Source of the DNA: an uncultured Bacteroidales bacterium
GTDB lineage: Bacteria; Bacteroidota; Bacteroidia; Bacteroidales; VadinHA17
Assembly: GCA_963825935.1 (NCBI GenBank)
Contig: CAWGUN010000012.1
Location: 5,323-69,322, forward strand
DNA length: 64,000 bases
Direction of reading: 5' to 3'
A program made the translations under genes and the position numbers. Positions 2,373 to 17,559 of this stretch are shown here, one piece after another (position 1 is the stretch's first letter; each line of letters opens with the position of its first letter). The notes under the pieces are model-generated. The model worked only from the letters and a program-made list of their open reading frames with translations. It was not told the DNA's origin and did no database searches.

Positions 2373-3311
2373 TTATTCAACTGAAGCTTTTATCATTGAC
2401 AAATTTGTCTCAAGGCCATCGAGGTAAATAAGCACCCAGGCAAGATTATTTCCAGATACATACCTGATTGTCCAGTCAGGTTCACTACCAATCTTTTCAG
2501 TCAGTCCCAGTATTGCTGGCAGTGCCTTTGCTGTCGACTCATAGCCCTTGCTCTGTTCCATAAGAGAAACCAGCTCTTTAAGAGCTGTTTGAAGCCTGTC
2601 ACCCGGCTCTGATTCTCCGCTATTCGCCAGCGCAGCCATAGGAATGTTTGGATTTTCAGGATAGAGCAAATTCCCCGGATTTTTCTTCCATTGTTCCCGC
2701 GTTAATTTTTGATTTTTTAATATCAGATCCTGATAATTATTGACGATTATCAATACCTCATCAATTTTTGCATTTACAGCCGATTCCTTGCCAATGACAG
2801 GGAGATTAGCCATCGCTGCTTCAACATTAACATAATTTCTTGATATTTTATAACTGTCATCAATGGTGCTTTTCGAGACATTCAGCGCAAGAAGTGCTGA
2901 AAAAACTGAGTTAAGAGCGAGTAAAAGCAATACAAAAACAGTATTGTAAGTGTTGAAATTCTTGTTTTTCGAAGTAACCACCAGAAAAACCGGAAGAAAT
3001 ACGACGTAAGGAAATGGAAGTGCAATAATTAATCCAAGTCCAGCATGCGGCCAATGCATTATTTTAAAAAGCATTGCAGTGAAAACGACAAAACATGTAA
3101 TATAGGTTACAATATAAAGCAACCTGTTCTTACTGTTTCCTTCAGTCTTGTAATTATTTATCAATGCAGCCGGAAGGAATAGCAGTAAAAGGATAAGGGT
3201 TCCGGAAATCAGTAAAATTGCTGCACAGGGCCAATGTTCTACTTTGAATATTGCACCTGTAGCCATTATCATAGCTGCTGCCACTCCGGGAATATATATC
3301 TTTTGTTTCAT
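2373..3311 (-). CDS. Membrane protein with two GldL-like FK[IV]xHWP hairpins, a GldM-like TM helix (ALLALNVSK) and an extracytoplasmic helical domain
   Basis: ORF 2373-3365. The likely start MKQKIYIPG is at 3311, 23 nt after the stop of the upstream gene. Motifs IFKVEHWPCAA and LFKIMHWPHAG sit between hydrophobic helices, followed by LLLALNSVFSALLALNVSKSTIDD and about 170 aa of non-hydrophobic sequence. Confidence 0.75.
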   Translation of the reverse strand: MKQKIYIPGVAAAMIMATGAIFKVEHWPCAAILLISGTLILLLLFLPAALINNYKTEGNSKNRLLYIVTYITCFVVFTAMLFKIMHWPHAGLGLIIALPFPYVVFLPVFLVVTSKNKNFNTYNTVFVLLLLALNSVFSALLALNVSKSTIDDSYKISRNYVNVEAAMANLPVIGKESAVNAKIDEVLIIVNNYQDLILKNQKLTREQWKKNPGNLLYPENPNIPMAALANSGESEPGDRLQTALKELVSLMEQSKGYESTAKALPAILGLTEKIGSEPDWTIRYVSGNNLAWVLIYLDGLETNLSMIKASVE

Positions 3312-3334
3312 GGTTTTTTGAATTAAAGTGATTA

Positions 3335-4768
3335 TTAATGTTTTGCAACTTGTTTTAAAACACATGATTCAACGGTAAGCAATCCGTTTTTCATAATCTC
3401 AAGGGAATGAAGCGCTGTCATTAATGACATTTCACCACTGCCGGAATTCTCCATGGACAGGTATGTTGACGGTTCTAAAAGATTCTTATATCTGATGAGA
3501 TCTTCCCCGGGAATAATTCCGGTCAGATAATCCAGGTATTCTGCCATTGCAATATTAATATTCTGGCGTGATGCACAGCCGGGTAAAAGAAAATCCTTTG
3601 CAGGGTTGATATCGAATGGCTTTGAAAGTTTATTGTAGATTATTTCCTGTCCGGTCTCAGTCTGGCTGATCTGAGCAGAACTCACGGCCGGATTGCCGGG
3701 TTCACCTTCTGATTCCTGTACCATCTTCTCCTGGATATTGCTGATAACTGCAAGCACCCCGGTGGTTCTGGTATGAAGCTGGAACAGTTTCGGGTAGGTC
3801 AATGAATCTTGTAACCTTATGACAAGGGAATTGTTATTCATGCATAAATAATTGTACATGGCAGTCTGCTGATTATTATTAGGATAATACTGGTTCAGGT
3901 AGGAGCGCTGCAGGCTCAGGTTTAGCAGAGCACTGGGAACTATCAGTAAAATAACTCCTATGACCATGTAAATGAACCTGGAACTGATATGACTCTCATC
4001 CTTCCAGGTAATCCGGGTAAACCATGGAAATGCCACAATGCATAACAGGACCAGCCCGAAGAGCATGGAAATAGTTGCCAGGGGCCAGTGCTGAATTTTA
4101 AAGAACACGCCTGCAATAATAAGTGCACAACCAGCTGAACCAATAATATAAACAGATCTTTTAGCCTTTGTTTCCGGGTCATTCAATCTGTCTATCAGCA
4201 GTGCAGGGATAAATAAAAGAATACCTGAAAATACTCCAAGTAACAAAAAAGAACCTGCTCCTGGCCAATGCTGAATCTTAAAAAGAGTACCGGCAATAAA
4301 GCATATTCCGGCCACGAATGCCGAAATGAAGAGGAATATTCTCTTTTTGTTGCGGGTCTCTTTCCAGAGAACTACAAGGGCTGAAGGTAAAAAAACAAAA
4401 GCCAGAACCAAAGCCCCAAGTGTTATCAGGATCCCTGCACCCGGCCAGTGCATGATCTTGAATATTGAAGCGAAGCCGAACATAATAGTTCCTGCGACGC
4501 CCGAAATTTTCATAGTGTTTTTCATTTTTCTGTATTTTGAATCAACTGCATAAAGTGTCTCTTCCTGGATTTCTTTAAGCCTGCGGGATCCCATTTTCTG
4601 CTTTACCCTGCGATATGCTTCAGAGAAAGATAATCCGTTCTGCATCTCATTTTCCACATCACAGCATATGTGATCGATAAGGTCGTCAAGAAGATGAGAA
4701 AATGTAATCTCCTGCTTGCTTACATCACGGCTGATCTGGTCAATATTCTGCAGACTTATTTCAGGCAT
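3335..4768 (-). CDS. PadR-coupled membrane protein: helical cytoplasmic N-module, three GldL-like FKIxHWP hairpins, a GldM-like TM helix and a periplasmic domain
   Basis: 477 aa. The start overlaps the padR stop by 8 nt. FKIMHWPGAG, FKIQHWPGAG and FKIQHWPLAT occur at aa 103, 163 and 223 (exact 60-aa period). These are followed by LIVPSALLNLSLQRSY and about 190 aa of soluble region. Confidence 0.8.
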   Translation of the reverse strand: MPEISLQNIDQISRDVSKQEITFSHLLDDLIDHICCDVENEMQNGLSFSEAYRRVKQKMGSRRLKEIQEETLYAVDSKYRKMKNTMKISGVAGTIMFGFASIFKIMHWPGAGILITLGALVLAFVFLPSALVVLWKETRNKKRIFLFISAFVAGICFIAGTLFKIQHWPGAGSFLLLGVFSGILLFIPALLIDRLNDPETKAKRSVYIIGSAGCALIIAGVFFKIQHWPLATISMLFGLVLLCIVAFPWFTRITWKDESHISSRFIYMVIGVILLIVPSALLNLSLQRSYLNQYYPNNNQQTAMYNYLCMNNNSLVIRLQDSLTYPKLFQLHTRTTGVLAVISNIQEKMVQESEGEPGNPAVSSAQISQTETGQEIIYNKLSKPFDINPAKDFLLPGCASRQNINIAMAEYLDYLTGIIPGEDLIRYKNLLEPSTYLSMENSGSGEMSLMTALHSLEIMKNGLLTVESCVLKQVAKH

Positions 4769-14617: not shown

Positions 14618-15736
14618 ATGAGAACCATATTATATCTAATCAGAAAAGAGTTCATTCAGATCTTCCGGAATAAATTTATTTCGCGGGCGATTTTCGGAGT
14701 TCCGATAATTCAGATGCTTATCCTGGTTCCGGCTGTTACCTTTGAAATTAAGAATGTCAGACTTTGCATAATTGACAGGGATATGACATCCGAATCAAGG
14801 GGTCTTATTTCCCAGTTGGAGGGTTCTACTTTCTTTAAAGTTAGATTCTCAACCTTTTCGGAAGAGGAAGCCAGTAGCCTGCTTGATAAGGGCAAATGTG
14901 ATCTTGCTCTTCAGATCCCCTCAGGGTTCGGCCGGGATATCGGTTCAGGAAAACCCTCAAAGCTCCTTGCTTCTGTCAATGCAATAAATGCATCTGTTGC
15001 CCAGCTTTCGTGGGCTTACCTTAACGGAGTACTCCGGGATTACAATATGAATATAATCGCACAAAATATCAATATAAATCCGCCTGCTCTGTTCCCACAG
15101 ATAATTGTTACAAACAGGTACTGGTACAACGAAATGCTTAATTACAAGTATTATATGCTGCCCGGCATTCTTGGGATACTGGTCACCGCTATCGGATTCC
15201 TGCTGGCAGGATTAAATCTTGTCAGGGAAAAAGAGATTGGAACCATAGAACAGATAAATGTCACACCTGTCAGAAAATATCAATTCATCATTGCGAAAAT
15301 GGTCCCCTTTCTCATAATCGGGCTAGTTGATCTTGCCCTTGGTCTGATCCTCGGGAAGATCGCCTTTAATATTCCGTTTGAAGGAAGTATCGCCTTGCTT
15401 TTCCTTTGTTCTGCAATTTTCCTGATTGCTGTTCTGGGGCTTGCTTTGTTTATTTCAACTTTTTCTTCTACACAGCAGCAATTTATGTTCATAGCATTTT
15501 TCTGTATGATCATTTTCATCCTTATGAGCGGTATTTTCACGCCTCTGGAAAGCATGCCGGTCTGGGCTCAGAAAGCCGATCTTATCAATCCAGTTGCATA
15601 CCTTATGAGGATCAACAGAATGGTGATGTTAAAAGGATCAACAATTCATGATATCAGCAGCGATATATTTGCACTGATAGCAATTGCAATATTATTTACA
15701 GCTTTTGCTGTAAGCAGGTACAGAAAAACGGCCTGA
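14618..15736 (+). CDS. ABC-2 type transporter permease (YbhS/YbhR-like)
   Basis: Paralogue of the preceding permease with the same topology. Confidence 0.88.
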   Translation: MRTILYLIRKEFIQIFRNKFISRAIFGVPIIQMLILVPAVTFEIKNVRLCIIDRDMTSESRGLISQLEGSTFFKVRFSTFSEEEASSLLDKGKCDLALQIPSGFGRDIGSGKPSKLLASVNAINASVAQLSWAYLNGVLRDYNMNIIAQNININPPALFPQIIVTNRYWYNEMLNYKYYMLPGILGILVTAIGFLLAGLNLVREKEIGTIEQINVTPVRKYQFIIAKMVPFLIIGLVDLALGLILGKIAFNIPFEGSIALLFLCSAIFLIAVLGLALFISTFSSTQQQFMFIAFFCMIIFILMSGIFTPLESMPVWAQKADLINPVAYLMRINRMVMLKGSTIHDISSDIFALIAIAILFTAFAVSRYRKTA

Positions 15737-15756
15737 TTAATAGAAATTTAATTAAA

Positions 15757-15812
15757 AGAAATCACTGCCTCCACAGGCCAGTGATCGGAGATATAAATTC
15801 TGCGCTCTTTTT
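15757..15812. repeat. 56-bp direct repeat, copy 1 (orphan copy of the EEP gene 3' end)
   Basis: Identical base-for-base to 16702-16757 (agaaatcactgcctccacaggccagtgatcggagatataaattctgcgctcttttt). Confidence 0.9.
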
Positions 15813-15893
15813 CCTGTTTTGTGCGAAAGACACCCATAATTAAGATAGACAGACAAGACAATAAACTTTTCATAATTGACATTAATACATTTA

Positions 15894-16199
15894 CTAACAG
15901 GTCTTGAATAATCCAGTATGTGATAATTCTTTCCAATCTTTATTAAACTGATTAATAAGTGCCAGTTTTTTCCCCCTGGAAAACCCTTTAATCTGTTTTT
16001 CCCTTTCTATTGCTGAAACAATTGAATCAAACCTTTCAAAATAAATCAGTTTATCAACATTATATTTCTGTGTAAATCCCTTTATTTTCTTTTGTTTATG
16101 TTCATAACACCTTCTCTCTAAGTCATTAGTAACTCCGGTATAAAGAACATTATGATATGTATTTGTCAGGATATAAACATAATATACCCGGGTTCTCAT
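15894..16199 (-). CDS. GIY-YIG nuclease family protein (stand-alone, about 100 aa)
   Basis: VYILTNTYHNVLYTGVTNDLERRCYEHK matches the GIY-(10 aa)-YIG-type core with downstream R and E residues. Confidence 0.85.
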   Translation of the reverse strand: MRTRVYYVYILTNTYHNVLYTGVTNDLERRCYEHKQKKIKGFTQKYNVDKLIYFERFDSIVSAIEREKQIKGFSRGKKLALINQFNKDWKELSHTGLFKTC

Positions 16200-16257
16200 T
16201 TAACTAACAGATTATTAATGACATTTATGATGAAGACCAAATTACAAAAAATCAGGA

Positions 16258-16491
16258 GATTCCTCGCTGGCTCTCGGAATGACGTGGCGAGATTGTGAGG
16301 TATAGGGGGAAAGAAGTGGCGATTCGCAAACTTTATTTTGACTCGTCCTAAAAAAAGTTTACAGATTAATAATTAAATCCTGATATCAATTTACACTTTT
16401 GAACTCTTTCGATATTTTTCAGCGAATCGCCACTTCTTTCCCCACCCCCTGTAAAATAATAAATTGTCATTCCGAGCGTTAGCGAGGAATC
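16258..16491. repeat. Nested long inverted repeat (outer 26-nt arms, inner perfect 22-nt arms)
   Basis: The outer arm gattcctcgctggctctcggaatgac (16258-16283) pairs with gtcattccgagcgttagcgaggaatc (16466-16491), with 23 of 26 positions complementary. The inner arm ggggaaagaagtggcgattcgc (16306-16327) pairs perfectly with gcgaatcgccacttctttcccc (16422-16443). Confidence 0.85.
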
Positions 16492-16671
16492 CCCGGCTCG
16501 CGTGAACATTCACCTTCAGTTATTCAGACAAACAATCACAAATCAGAGATGCCTTGTCCCGCTTAGACCTCACCGGAGGTAATCTACCGGATTCATGGTA
16601 TGGACAATGGAGAGACACCCATATTTTCTATAAATAAATCTCTTATTTGCTACTAATAAAATAGTTATACT

Positions 16672-17559
16672 TTATTGAAGCTGAAAACCGCTCAAAACAG
16701 GAGAAATCACTGCCTCCACAGGCCAGTGATCGGAGATATAAATTCTGCGCTCTTTTTTAATTATTGTCTTGTGAGTAAGTACCTTCAGGCCGTCCTTTAC
16801 AAAAATATAATCTATCCTGCCTGATCCCTGCTTATCTGAGAATCCATTAAAAGTATACATCGGGCCAGCCGGAGTTTTTTCAGAAATAACGAATGAATCA
16901 TTAAGGAGAGGAACACTTTCAGAAGGTCCTGTAAGAATTCCATAACCCTTGCTGGTAGACAGCATATTAAAATCGCCGGTTATAACAAACGGGAAATCCG
17001 AAGAAATACTATCAACTTTACTGAGCAGCAATCCTGCGCTCATAATCCTTGCCGAATCTGAATCGTGGGCAAAATGTGTATTGAAAAAGTAAATATGCTG
17101 ATGGCTGTTTTTATCAACAAGCTCCATCCATGTAACGATCCGGGGAAGGCCTGCACCCCATGCCTGTGATCCGGGCACTTCAGGTGTTTCAGATAACCAG
17201 AACGTTTTTGTCCTGATCATGTCGAACCTTTCTTTCCTGTAAAAGACAGGATTCATTTCACCCATTTTTGCCCCGTCAGTGCGACCAACTCCCACTGAAC
17301 CGTAATCTTTCAGGACCGAATCGAGAAATTCAAACTGATGCTGAAGAACTTCCTGCATCCCGAGAAGGTCGGGCTTTTCATTCCTGATAAAATTACTGAC
17401 AATAGCCGCCCTGTTGGACCAGGCATTAATACTGTCGCGCGGATTATCATATCTGACATTTAATGTCATCACTTTAATTGCATCCTTATCAGATTCACGT
17501 GAACATCCACTGAAAATCAACAGGAGGAGGAATGCAGAAAATATCAGAGATCTTTTCAT
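16672..17559 (-). CDS. Endonuclease/exonuclease/phosphatase (EEP) family lipoprotein
   Basis: Lipobox LLIFSGC, EEP motifs LGMQEV, GDFN and C-terminal SDHWPV. Confidence 0.85.
   Translation of the reverse strand: MKRSLIFSAFLLLLIFSGCSRESDKDAIKVMTLNVRYDNPRDSINAWSNRAAIVSNFIRNEKPDLLGMQEVLQHQFEFLDSVLKDYGSVGVGRTDGAKMGEMNPVFYRKERFDMIRTKTFWLSETPEVPGSQAWGAGLPRIVTWMELVDKNSHQHIYFFNTHFAHDSDSARIMSAGLLLSKVDSISSDFPFVITGDFNMLSTSKGYGILTGPSESVPLLNDSFVISEKTPAGPMYTFNGFSDKQGSGRIDYIFVKDGLKVLTHKTIIKKERRIYISDHWPVEAVISPVLSGFQLQ
16702..16757. repeat. 56-bp direct repeat, copy 2 (inside the intact EEP gene, encodes ERRIYISDHWPVEAVIS)
   Basis: Identical to 15757-15812. Confidence 0.9.

Follow-up and report, generated by a model that had tools for sequence, protein, structure and literature searches.

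An Ssn-family GIY-YIG nuclease gene in a Bacteroidales element inserted with a long target duplication, and its putative role in transposition

The entry of restriction-modification (R-M) genes into bacterial genomes has been described as "insertion with long target duplication" (Nobusato et al., 2000; Furuta et al., 2010, PMC2853133). It is the closest described phenomenon to the locus reported here, an 889-nt mobile element with a small GIY-YIG nuclease gene, lying in the 3' end of an endonuclease/exonuclease/phosphatase (EEP)-family gene. The locus is part of a 64,000-nt stretch of DNA from an uncultured Bacteroidales bacterium (GCA_963825935.1, contig CAWGUN010000012.1, positions 5,323 to 69,322), hereafter called the window. 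The two phenomena have in common a nuclease-encoding insert without integrase or transposase, variable duplications of more than 30 bp, repeats that often span a gene start or stop, and detection through an empty site (PMC2853133). However, the R-M cases are one-off inserts of different R-M units with no common ends, whereas the element in the window is 0.9 kb long, has no methyltransferase, and belongs to a multi-copy family with conserved inverted termini and a target signature.

The second related system is SsnA of Neisseria meningitidis, a 94-aa single-domain GIY-YIG enzyme that binds the NTS hairpin repeat CGTCATTCCCGCG...GCGGGAATC only as single-stranded DNA (ssDNA) and cuts about 3 nt upstream of the hairpin (Chenal et al., 2025, PMC11893778). 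Thousands of Ssn homologues occur across bacteria, flanked by related motifs (SRM), and the arrangement NTS-ssnA-NTS was noted to be like an insertion sequence (IS), a (domesticated) mobile element being offered as a hypothesis (PMC11893778). The window element is similar in its single-domain GIY-YIG protein of ~100 aa, the same catalytic residues, a hairpin motif, and an IS-like layout of gene plus repeats. The published work contains neither insertion polymorphism nor target duplication and treats mobility as a hypothesis only, whereas the window element has an occupied/empty pair, non-SRM termini, long variable duplications, and GIY-less derivatives. It also differs in that both motif copies lie on one side of the gene and neither is a literal match to the SRM pattern. 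In the literature searched, no paper described mobility, empty sites, or target duplications for an Ssn gene or a GIY-YIG bacterial transposon, and nothing beyond PMC11893778 and PMC2853133 was found on GIY-YIG transposases or on target duplications linked to GIY-YIG genes in bacteria.

Likenesses to more distant systems were also observed. In IS200/IS605 and RAYT/REP, a small element or gene is tied to hairpin repeats, the enzyme acts on ssDNA at hairpins, and non-autonomous hairpin repeats are amplified; however, these systems rely on an HUH/Y1 transposase that forms a covalent intermediate, their insertion site is a fixed short sequence, and no target duplication is produced. In target-primed insertion of the long interspersed nuclear element (LINE) type and in the GIY-YIG Penelope-like elements, a T/A-rich site is nicked, a second, offset nick sets a variable duplication, and some junctions bear microhomology or extra bases. 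The window element agrees with these nick-initiated retroelements in outline (proposed nick site, variable duplications, junction marks) and differs from them in being a bacterial DNA element with no reverse transcriptase and no indication of an RNA intermediate.

The insertion site in the window comprises the following features.

14618-15736, + strand: convergent ABC-2 permease gene, which bounds the target site
15757-15812, no strand: target-site duplication, copy 1 (orphan); an exact repeat in which the original gene end is preserved (...AVIS, with FN* next at 15748-15756) and which aligns to the single copy in the relative L001
15813-16701, - strand: inserted mobile element, 889 nt, GC content 34.6% vs 39.5% in the window
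16702-16757, no strand: target-site duplication, copy 2, an exact repeat joined to the EEP gene body; empty-site joint 15756 to 16702 in X5 and X6
16672-17559, - strand: host EEP-family gene with a chimeric tail, 295 aa, PF03372 (E 8e-21)

The exact 56-nt direct repeat (15757-15812 and 16702-16757, spacing 945) has no further copy elsewhere in the 64-kb window, where the chance expectation is 0 matches. Copy 2 forms the 3' part of the EEP gene. Copy 1 is an orphan within a remnant open reading frame (ORF) that ends ...ERRIYISDHWPVEAVISFN*; its stop codon (15748-15750) and that of the permease are separated by 11 nt. In the closest relative (L001, 94% protein identity), the gene order of MutL, EEP, and convergent permease is the same as in the window, but there is a single 56-mer, 11 nt separate the EEP gene end ...AVISFN* from the permease stop, and the insert is absent. 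The EEP protein of this locus, P0002, is the closest orthologue (94% identity), and its end is exactly that of the orphan copy. In the alignment of L001 with the window, the left part runs up to 15812 and the right part starts from 16702, with an overlap of exactly 56 nt. The empty joint (15756 to 16702; 945 nt skipped and 56 nt shared) was also found in contigs of two freshwater-sediment metagenomes, X5 and X6. The gain at the locus is 945 bp in the 3' end of the EEP gene, made up of the 889-nt insert and the 56-nt duplicate. An original prediction made from the sequence alone had described the perfect repeat, the orphan remnant, and a 945-bp insertion into the end of the EEP gene, and had proposed that close relatives might retain an empty site; all of these agree with our results. 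The two marks of a long target duplication are both present, in that the insert occurs in one genome while a close relative has the empty site (L001, and also X5/X6), and the duplication exceeds 30 bp around an insert without integrase or transposase. An insertion accompanied by a 56-bp target duplication is almost certainly a real event at this locus.

Both 56-mers of the window carry the same two substitutions relative to L001, and therefore the duplicate was made from the lineage's own DNA and was not carried in. The common substitutions, together with a different repeat at every site of the element (see below), show that the target was the source of the duplicate. The original prediction had left it open whether a replacement 3' end was carried or generated, and the evidence supports the second alternative. 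It had also held that the host gene stays intact, which is correct in part: the catalytic C-terminal SDH motif is retained despite the new tail and the gene is functional, but its end is not exactly restored. The last 30 nt of the EEP gene (16672-16701) are element sequence, and the last two codons with the stop (FN*) have been replaced by nine codons and a stop (PVLSGFQLQ*) supplied by the terminal repeat of the element, giving a protein of 295 aa vs 288 aa in nearly all orthologues. Exact-protein look-ups gave no match for the window EEP protein, the window GIY-YIG protein, P0122, or P0123. The repeats around the insert resemble attL and attR, and a functional host gene would also be expected if the element carried an attP-like gene 3' end that recombined with the chromosomal copy, as tRNA-gene islands do. 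However, the insert has no integrase or recombinase, the repeat differs in sequence and length at each of six sites, and the two shared substitutions mark both 56-mers as native, so that such site-specific integration is effectively excluded. An integrase-mediated element restoring the 3' end was rejected on the same grounds (no tyrosine or serine recombinase; different repeats at every site), and the likeness to elements that restore tRNA 3' ends, drawn in the original prediction, did not hold, there being no integrase and no common attachment core.

The element itself contains the following features.

15813-15835, + strand: element terminus downstream of the nuclease gene, CCTGTTTTGTGCGAAAGACACCC; sharp boundary kept in all copies, the first 13 nt being the inverted match of the other end
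15851-16301, - strand: segment lost in GIY-less derivatives (motif, leader, nuclease gene, and tail), ~451 nt; joints 15846 to 16305 and 15850 to 16302 (runs X7, X10)
15894-16199, - strand: ssn-type gene for a 101-aa single-domain GIY-YIG nuclease, PF01541 (E 9e-16)
16255-16284, - strand: SRM-like hairpin motif GTCATTCCGAGAGCCAGCGAGGAATC, on the gene's strand, 58 nt upstream of the nuclease start codon
16306-16443, no strand: long hairpin between the motifs, with perfect 22-nt stems at 16306-27 and 16422-43
16465-16494, + strand: second SRM-like motif TGTCATTCCGAGCGTTAGCGAGGAATCCCC, inverted relative to the first and 1 substitution from the published SRM pattern
16689-16701, + strand: other element terminus, CGCTCAAAACAGG; 12/13 inverted match to 15813-15825; gives the EEP gene its new C-terminal codons and stop

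The ends of the element are conserved and imperfectly inverted (5'-CCTGTTTTGWGCG...CGCWCAAAACAGG-3'). Their boundaries are constant across copies, falling directly after ...GGGTGTCTTTCGCACAAAACAGG on the gene-downstream side and directly before CCTGTTTTGAGCGG... on the opposite side. The description of the 889 nt as holding nothing more than a GIY-YIG gene and structured inverted repeats was accurate: one gene is credible, PF01541 is the sole domain, and no further ORF of more than 62 aa, no methyltransferase, and no integrase, transposase, or recombinase was found in the insert. The inverted repeats are nested (16255-83/16466-94, with 16306-27/16422-43 inside), and the predicted ssDNA fold of the region is much more stable than that of shuffled sequence (z = -6.0). 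Members of the element family carry one or two copies of the SRM-like motif; in the window, the two copies form a long palindrome upstream of the gene. In many metagenome copies, the hairpin loop (16328-16420) is occupied by unrelated sequences of 5-32 nt, with the stems kept. The insert, its terminus, and the nuclease gene have no additional copies in the 64-kb window, and a scan of viral contigs for the terminus was negative. Rfam gave no match over the whole window at the gathering threshold; when 15700-16800 was scanned permissively, the long palindrome alone drew microRNA-hairpin matches, all below threshold, and no known RNA family was present.

In the comparison of DNA with the closest copies, elements with the same ends were found at other chromosomal sites (L082, L083/L164-168, L086, L163, L169, and L171), and short contigs of other runs showed the element ends joined to still other flanks. 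The nuclease has thousands of close relatives, many of them on very short contigs, as is expected because repeats break assemblies. On this comparison, the insert is a member of a multi-copy Bacteroidales element family. The original prediction had suggested looking for target duplications at other cassettes, and long duplications of unrelated sequence were indeed found, as follows.

Window site: duplication 56 nt, 100% identity
L083/L164-166 site: duplication 78 nt, 97% identity
L163 site: duplication 82 nt, 90% identity
L169 site: duplication 40 nt, 92.5% identity
L171 site: duplication at least 106 nt, 98% identity
L173 site: duplication 82 nt, 97.6% identity

At these six independent sites, every repeat differs in sequence, and each overlaps a gene 3' end or a convergent or terminator region. 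The repeat at L173 covers the ends of both convergent genes, and both genes stay whole. Interrupted genes usually remain functional because the duplication preserves gene ends. The L083/L164-166 site was assembled independently from at least 4 samples of two data sources. This bears on the possibility of an assembly artefact, in which the insert and the second 56-mer were wrongly joined. The public runs, available as low-coverage contig sets, yielded no reads across the exact locus and did not confirm both 56-mers, which leaves room for an artefact. However, repeat-element-repeat was assembled independently at other sites, the chimeric ORF is in frame across the junction, and the boundaries of the repeat coincide with the conserved element ends, and an assembly error is thus effectively excluded as well. 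For genome annotation, these results mean that long exact gene-end repeats beside small GIY-YIG genes are real insertions and not assembly errors.

At the L163 site, the nuclease ORF (3001-3456) has lost its stop and runs through the terminus into the duplicated end of the neighbouring helix-turn-helix gene, giving 151 aa vs 101 aa; the four differences within this ORF between the repeat copies are all synonymous.

The target signature was read outward from the element ends in 20 junction flanks and compared with controls. The first flank base was A in 17/20 (P 5e-7), and the first five flank nucleotides contained on average 3.35 A vs 1.56 in controls (P 2e-8). The target therefore resembles ARAAA...TTTYT. 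The element joins it immediately outside each pentamer, which is the geometry of two cuts in opposite strands leaving 5' overhangs. A strong hairpin was located within 40 nt of the junction more often in the flanks (4/20) than in controls (4.2%; P 0.009). L168 contains a second element, diverged in sequence, whose junction falls on the identical nucleotide and adjoins a terminator-like hairpin. Stretches of microhomology shared by element end and target were seen in L169, L171, and L173, and 18 nt of filler DNA are present at the L163 junction; both are marks of repair-mediated joining and not of transposase chemistry.

The order in L168 (1-1217) is repeat-element-repeat-element, the second element starting after the right-hand 78-nt copy, which suggests either that insertion recurred at one spot or that the array grew in tandem via the long repeats. 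A scheme in which each duplication corresponds to a single hairpin, cut at both of its bases, was rejected: it agrees with L169 but fails in the window, where the hairpin makes up only half of the 56 nt.

Microhomology and filler at the junctions, and the position of every site at a gene 3' end or terminator, would also be produced if the host alone were responsible. In such a case, convergent gene ends or terminators would suffer staggered breaks or template switches spontaneously, from hairpins or conflicts between replication and transcription, and these would be patched with abundant DNA, such as fragments acquired by transformation, the element contributing no function. Similar long duplications have been reported around unrelated R-M genes, mostly in naturally competent species (PMC2853133). 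However, random capture should give ragged and varied inserts, whereas the inserted DNA has identical sharp ends at every site; moreover, the ARAAA flank signature is strong and symmetric, and the diverged second element in L168 was joined at the same nucleotide. We consider capture driven by the host alone to be improbable.

The nuclease shows several characteristics of the Ssn family (cd10448). Ssn homology was defined by tblastn with E < 1e-10 against Neisseria SsnA (PMC11893778), and the window nuclease falls within this limit: on the N. gonorrhoeae chromosome, a single locus was matched with 44.7% identity (E 4e-17), and pairwise BLASTP of the two proteins gave 45% identity (E 5e-27). The N. 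gonorrhoeae locus sits within seven exact NTS repeats and, from this context, is presumably the ssnA orthologue. The size of the protein (101 aa) agrees with the single-domain GIY-YIG proteins of ~94-100 aa in the family; PF01541 spans residues 6-75, there is no second domain, and the structure model predicts one compact GIY-YIG domain. Counterparts of the catalytic Tyr, Tyr, and Glu (Y6, Y17, and E64 in N. meningitidis SsnA) are present, and across 21 clade members the catalytic Y6/Y8, Y19, and E66 do not vary, with R28, H33, and N85 equally invariant. Between copies at different sites, the ratio of nonsynonymous to synonymous substitution rates (dN/dS) is 0.10-0.24, indicating purifying selection.

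The GC-rich inverted repeats are two inverted copies of the motif GTCATTCCGAG...CGAGGAATC, whose outer blocks GTCATTCC...GGAATC are shared with NTS. In the 64 kb, the motif has two copies, both within the insert, and it accompanies 104/168 homologous nuclease loci from many phyla, typically adjoining the gene. The published SRM pattern, HGTCWYN(0-2)YYVSBRHN(0-5)WNVSBRGN(0-2)RNCYNB, has 0 literal matches in the window; the two motif copies are 1 and 3 substitutions off, and at 2 or more substitutions the pattern is non-specific. Given the 45% identity to an NTS-embedded Neisseria locus and the NTS-like motif, the gene was therefore filed as a putative Ssn-family member with a variant motif. NCBIfam gave a weak, sub-threshold match to a group I intron endonuclease alone, and PDB sequence and fold searches gave weak, generic GIY-YIG relatives (UPF0213 BH0048, the UvrC N-terminal domain, I-TevI, and Slx1) with nothing specific on structure-specific activity.

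The element behaves like a transposon, as shown by at least six unrelated sites, terminal inverted repeats, GIY-less derivatives, and variable duplications. The same features (with duplications of 40 to at least 106 nt) speak against the "homing-like" mobility suggested in the original prediction. GIY-YIG homing endonucleases, whether free-standing or intron-encoded (I-TevI, the Seg proteins), are alike in catalytic fold, to which the structural matches are weak. They differ in having a DNA-binding domain, in cutting double-stranded DNA at one cognate allele, in depending on homologous repair, and in leaving no target duplication. A GIY-YIG homing endonuclease gene was rejected as an identity for the insert, which has a single domain and at least six unrelated sites, each with a duplication. 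A classical insertion sequence was rejected as well: 12/13 termini are present, but there is no DDE, serine, tyrosine, or HUH transposase, and the duplications are variable at 40 to at least 106 nt. The prediction had further pointed to the GIY-YIG nuclease as the mobility function in an insert without integrase or transposase; the absence of both was confirmed, and it is reasonable to infer that the nuclease has this function.

We propose that this non-canonical transposable element inserts by nuclease cuts, fill-in, and host joining, and we put the probability of this full account at roughly 0.55. Two single-strand cuts, one in each strand, would open the target. Each would fall immediately 5' of an A-rich pentamer (N^ARAAA), in some cases with a hairpin directly downstream, a geometry like that of the characterised Ssn enzymes, which cut a few nucleotides upstream of a hairpin in ssDNA. 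Since the nuclease would be restricted to ssDNA, the cuts would be independent events, 40 to >100 bp apart, in DNA transiently unwound or extruded at gene ends or terminators. Fill-in of the long 5' overhangs would then give the long variable duplication. The element would be joined by host repair (microhomology annealing, ligation, or primed copying) with no strand transfer of the transposase type, and microhomology and filler would therefore be expected at some junctions. Insertions would be tolerated because the duplication leaves the interrupted gene end intact or nearly so.

Several observations weigh against this account, in addition to the missing read support for both 56-mers at the locus. 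GIY-YIG enzymes are DNA hydrolases with no known strand-joining activity; all joining steps were therefore assigned to the host. The characterised Ssn enzymes cleave ssDNA solely beside their cognate motif (PMC11893778), and no Ssn motif was found in the element ends or the target duplications. Hairpin enrichment at the junctions is weak overall (rank test P 0.14), no flanking duplication was found in L005 and L086, where both element ends are visible, and the location at gene ends could reflect the survival of harmless insertions and not targeting. In metagenomes, the depth of the terminal 36 nt is 3-7 times that of the ORF. In L005 and L114, the cassette of motif plus gene is inverted relative to the termini, so that the gene may have been a unit of its own that came to lie inside a shell.

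The last two observations lead to a different explanation, in which the nuclease is a passenger. A shell with CCTGTTTTG termini, resembling a miniature inverted-repeat transposable element (MITE), would be mobilised in trans by an enzyme encoded elsewhere, and the ~451-nt ssn cassette would have been inserted into it earlier. The excess depth of the terminus and contigs without the ~451 nt indicate that gene-less, MITE-like derivatives exist, and these GIY-less forms, the reversed cassette, the termini devoid of Ssn motif, and the occurrence of the gene-plus-motif unit in other phyla without these termini are all compatible with a passenger gene. However, the ~438-nt remainder of the GIY-less forms still bears a motif, as would a non-autonomous partner of Ssn served in trans. 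Duplications of 40 to at least 106 bp with microhomology and filler match no known transposase family. There is no alternative candidate gene in or near any copy, the IS110-family gene of L082 and L173 being an insertion into the element that other copies do not have. The ORF is also under purifying selection in copies at different sites. We regard a passenger role for the nuclease as unlikely, though not negligible, and retain insertion by nuclease cuts and host repair as the preferred account.

The IS110-family (DEDD transposase) gene occupies the same internal position in L082 (250-1548) and L173 (761-2059), in or beside the SRM-like motif that precedes the nuclease gene. The elements lie at two different chromosomal sites, with 78.5% identity between their IS parts over 1.5 kb, and at L173 the 82-nt target duplication encloses the entire 2.2-kb composite of element and IS. 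Either the composite moved whole, or the IS repeatedly targets the motif.

Our results provide direct evidence for the mobility of an Ssn gene, including occupied and empty alleles, defined ends, several independent insertions, and non-autonomous derivatives. The Ssn family, described in 2025, is very widespread. The element is also a compact, repeatable, and experimentally tractable case of long variable target duplication, so far known from scattered R-M insertions. If the nuclease drives insertion, this would be a route of transposition without transposase chemistry. The chance that a distinct mode of transposition, by nuclease plus repair, is at work here is fair. A further-reaching and more tentative proposal, which we hold possible rather than probable, is that the Ssn nuclease is the sole element-encoded function of a previously unrecognised class of bacterial transposons, acting by two ssDNA cuts with joining by host repair. 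If true, such a route would explain both the "insertion with long target duplication" of R-M genes and the genome-wide spread of NTS/SRM.

Some minor observations concern other nuclease loci. In L013, L020, L023, L029, L031, L036, L045, L052, L055, L056, L067, and L075 (at ~2900-3450), from Firmicutes, Chloroflexi, Patescibacteria, Nitrospirota, and others, nuclease homologues are tightly bracketed by exact direct repeats of 29-75 nt, spaced 370-475 nt apart and made of the hairpin motif itself. These motif-bracketed genes may reflect the same duplication process with a motif copy as the target. In L004 (2552-4640), the whole nuclease-gene unit is tandemly repeated with a period of 774 nt, and L172 (1463-2045) has at least 7 tandem 80-nt repeats, each with half a motif, just upstream of the nuclease gene. 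The ssnA-like frame of L170 (NZ_CP119142.1, 1880219-1883473) has no in-frame ATG just before its conserved VYIL start, a nearby ATG being in another frame, and the gene may be disrupted or use another start. Finally, two Neisseria gonorrhoeae chromosomes (2.17 Mb), one of them that of L170, were catalogued as plasmids in the plasmid collection.

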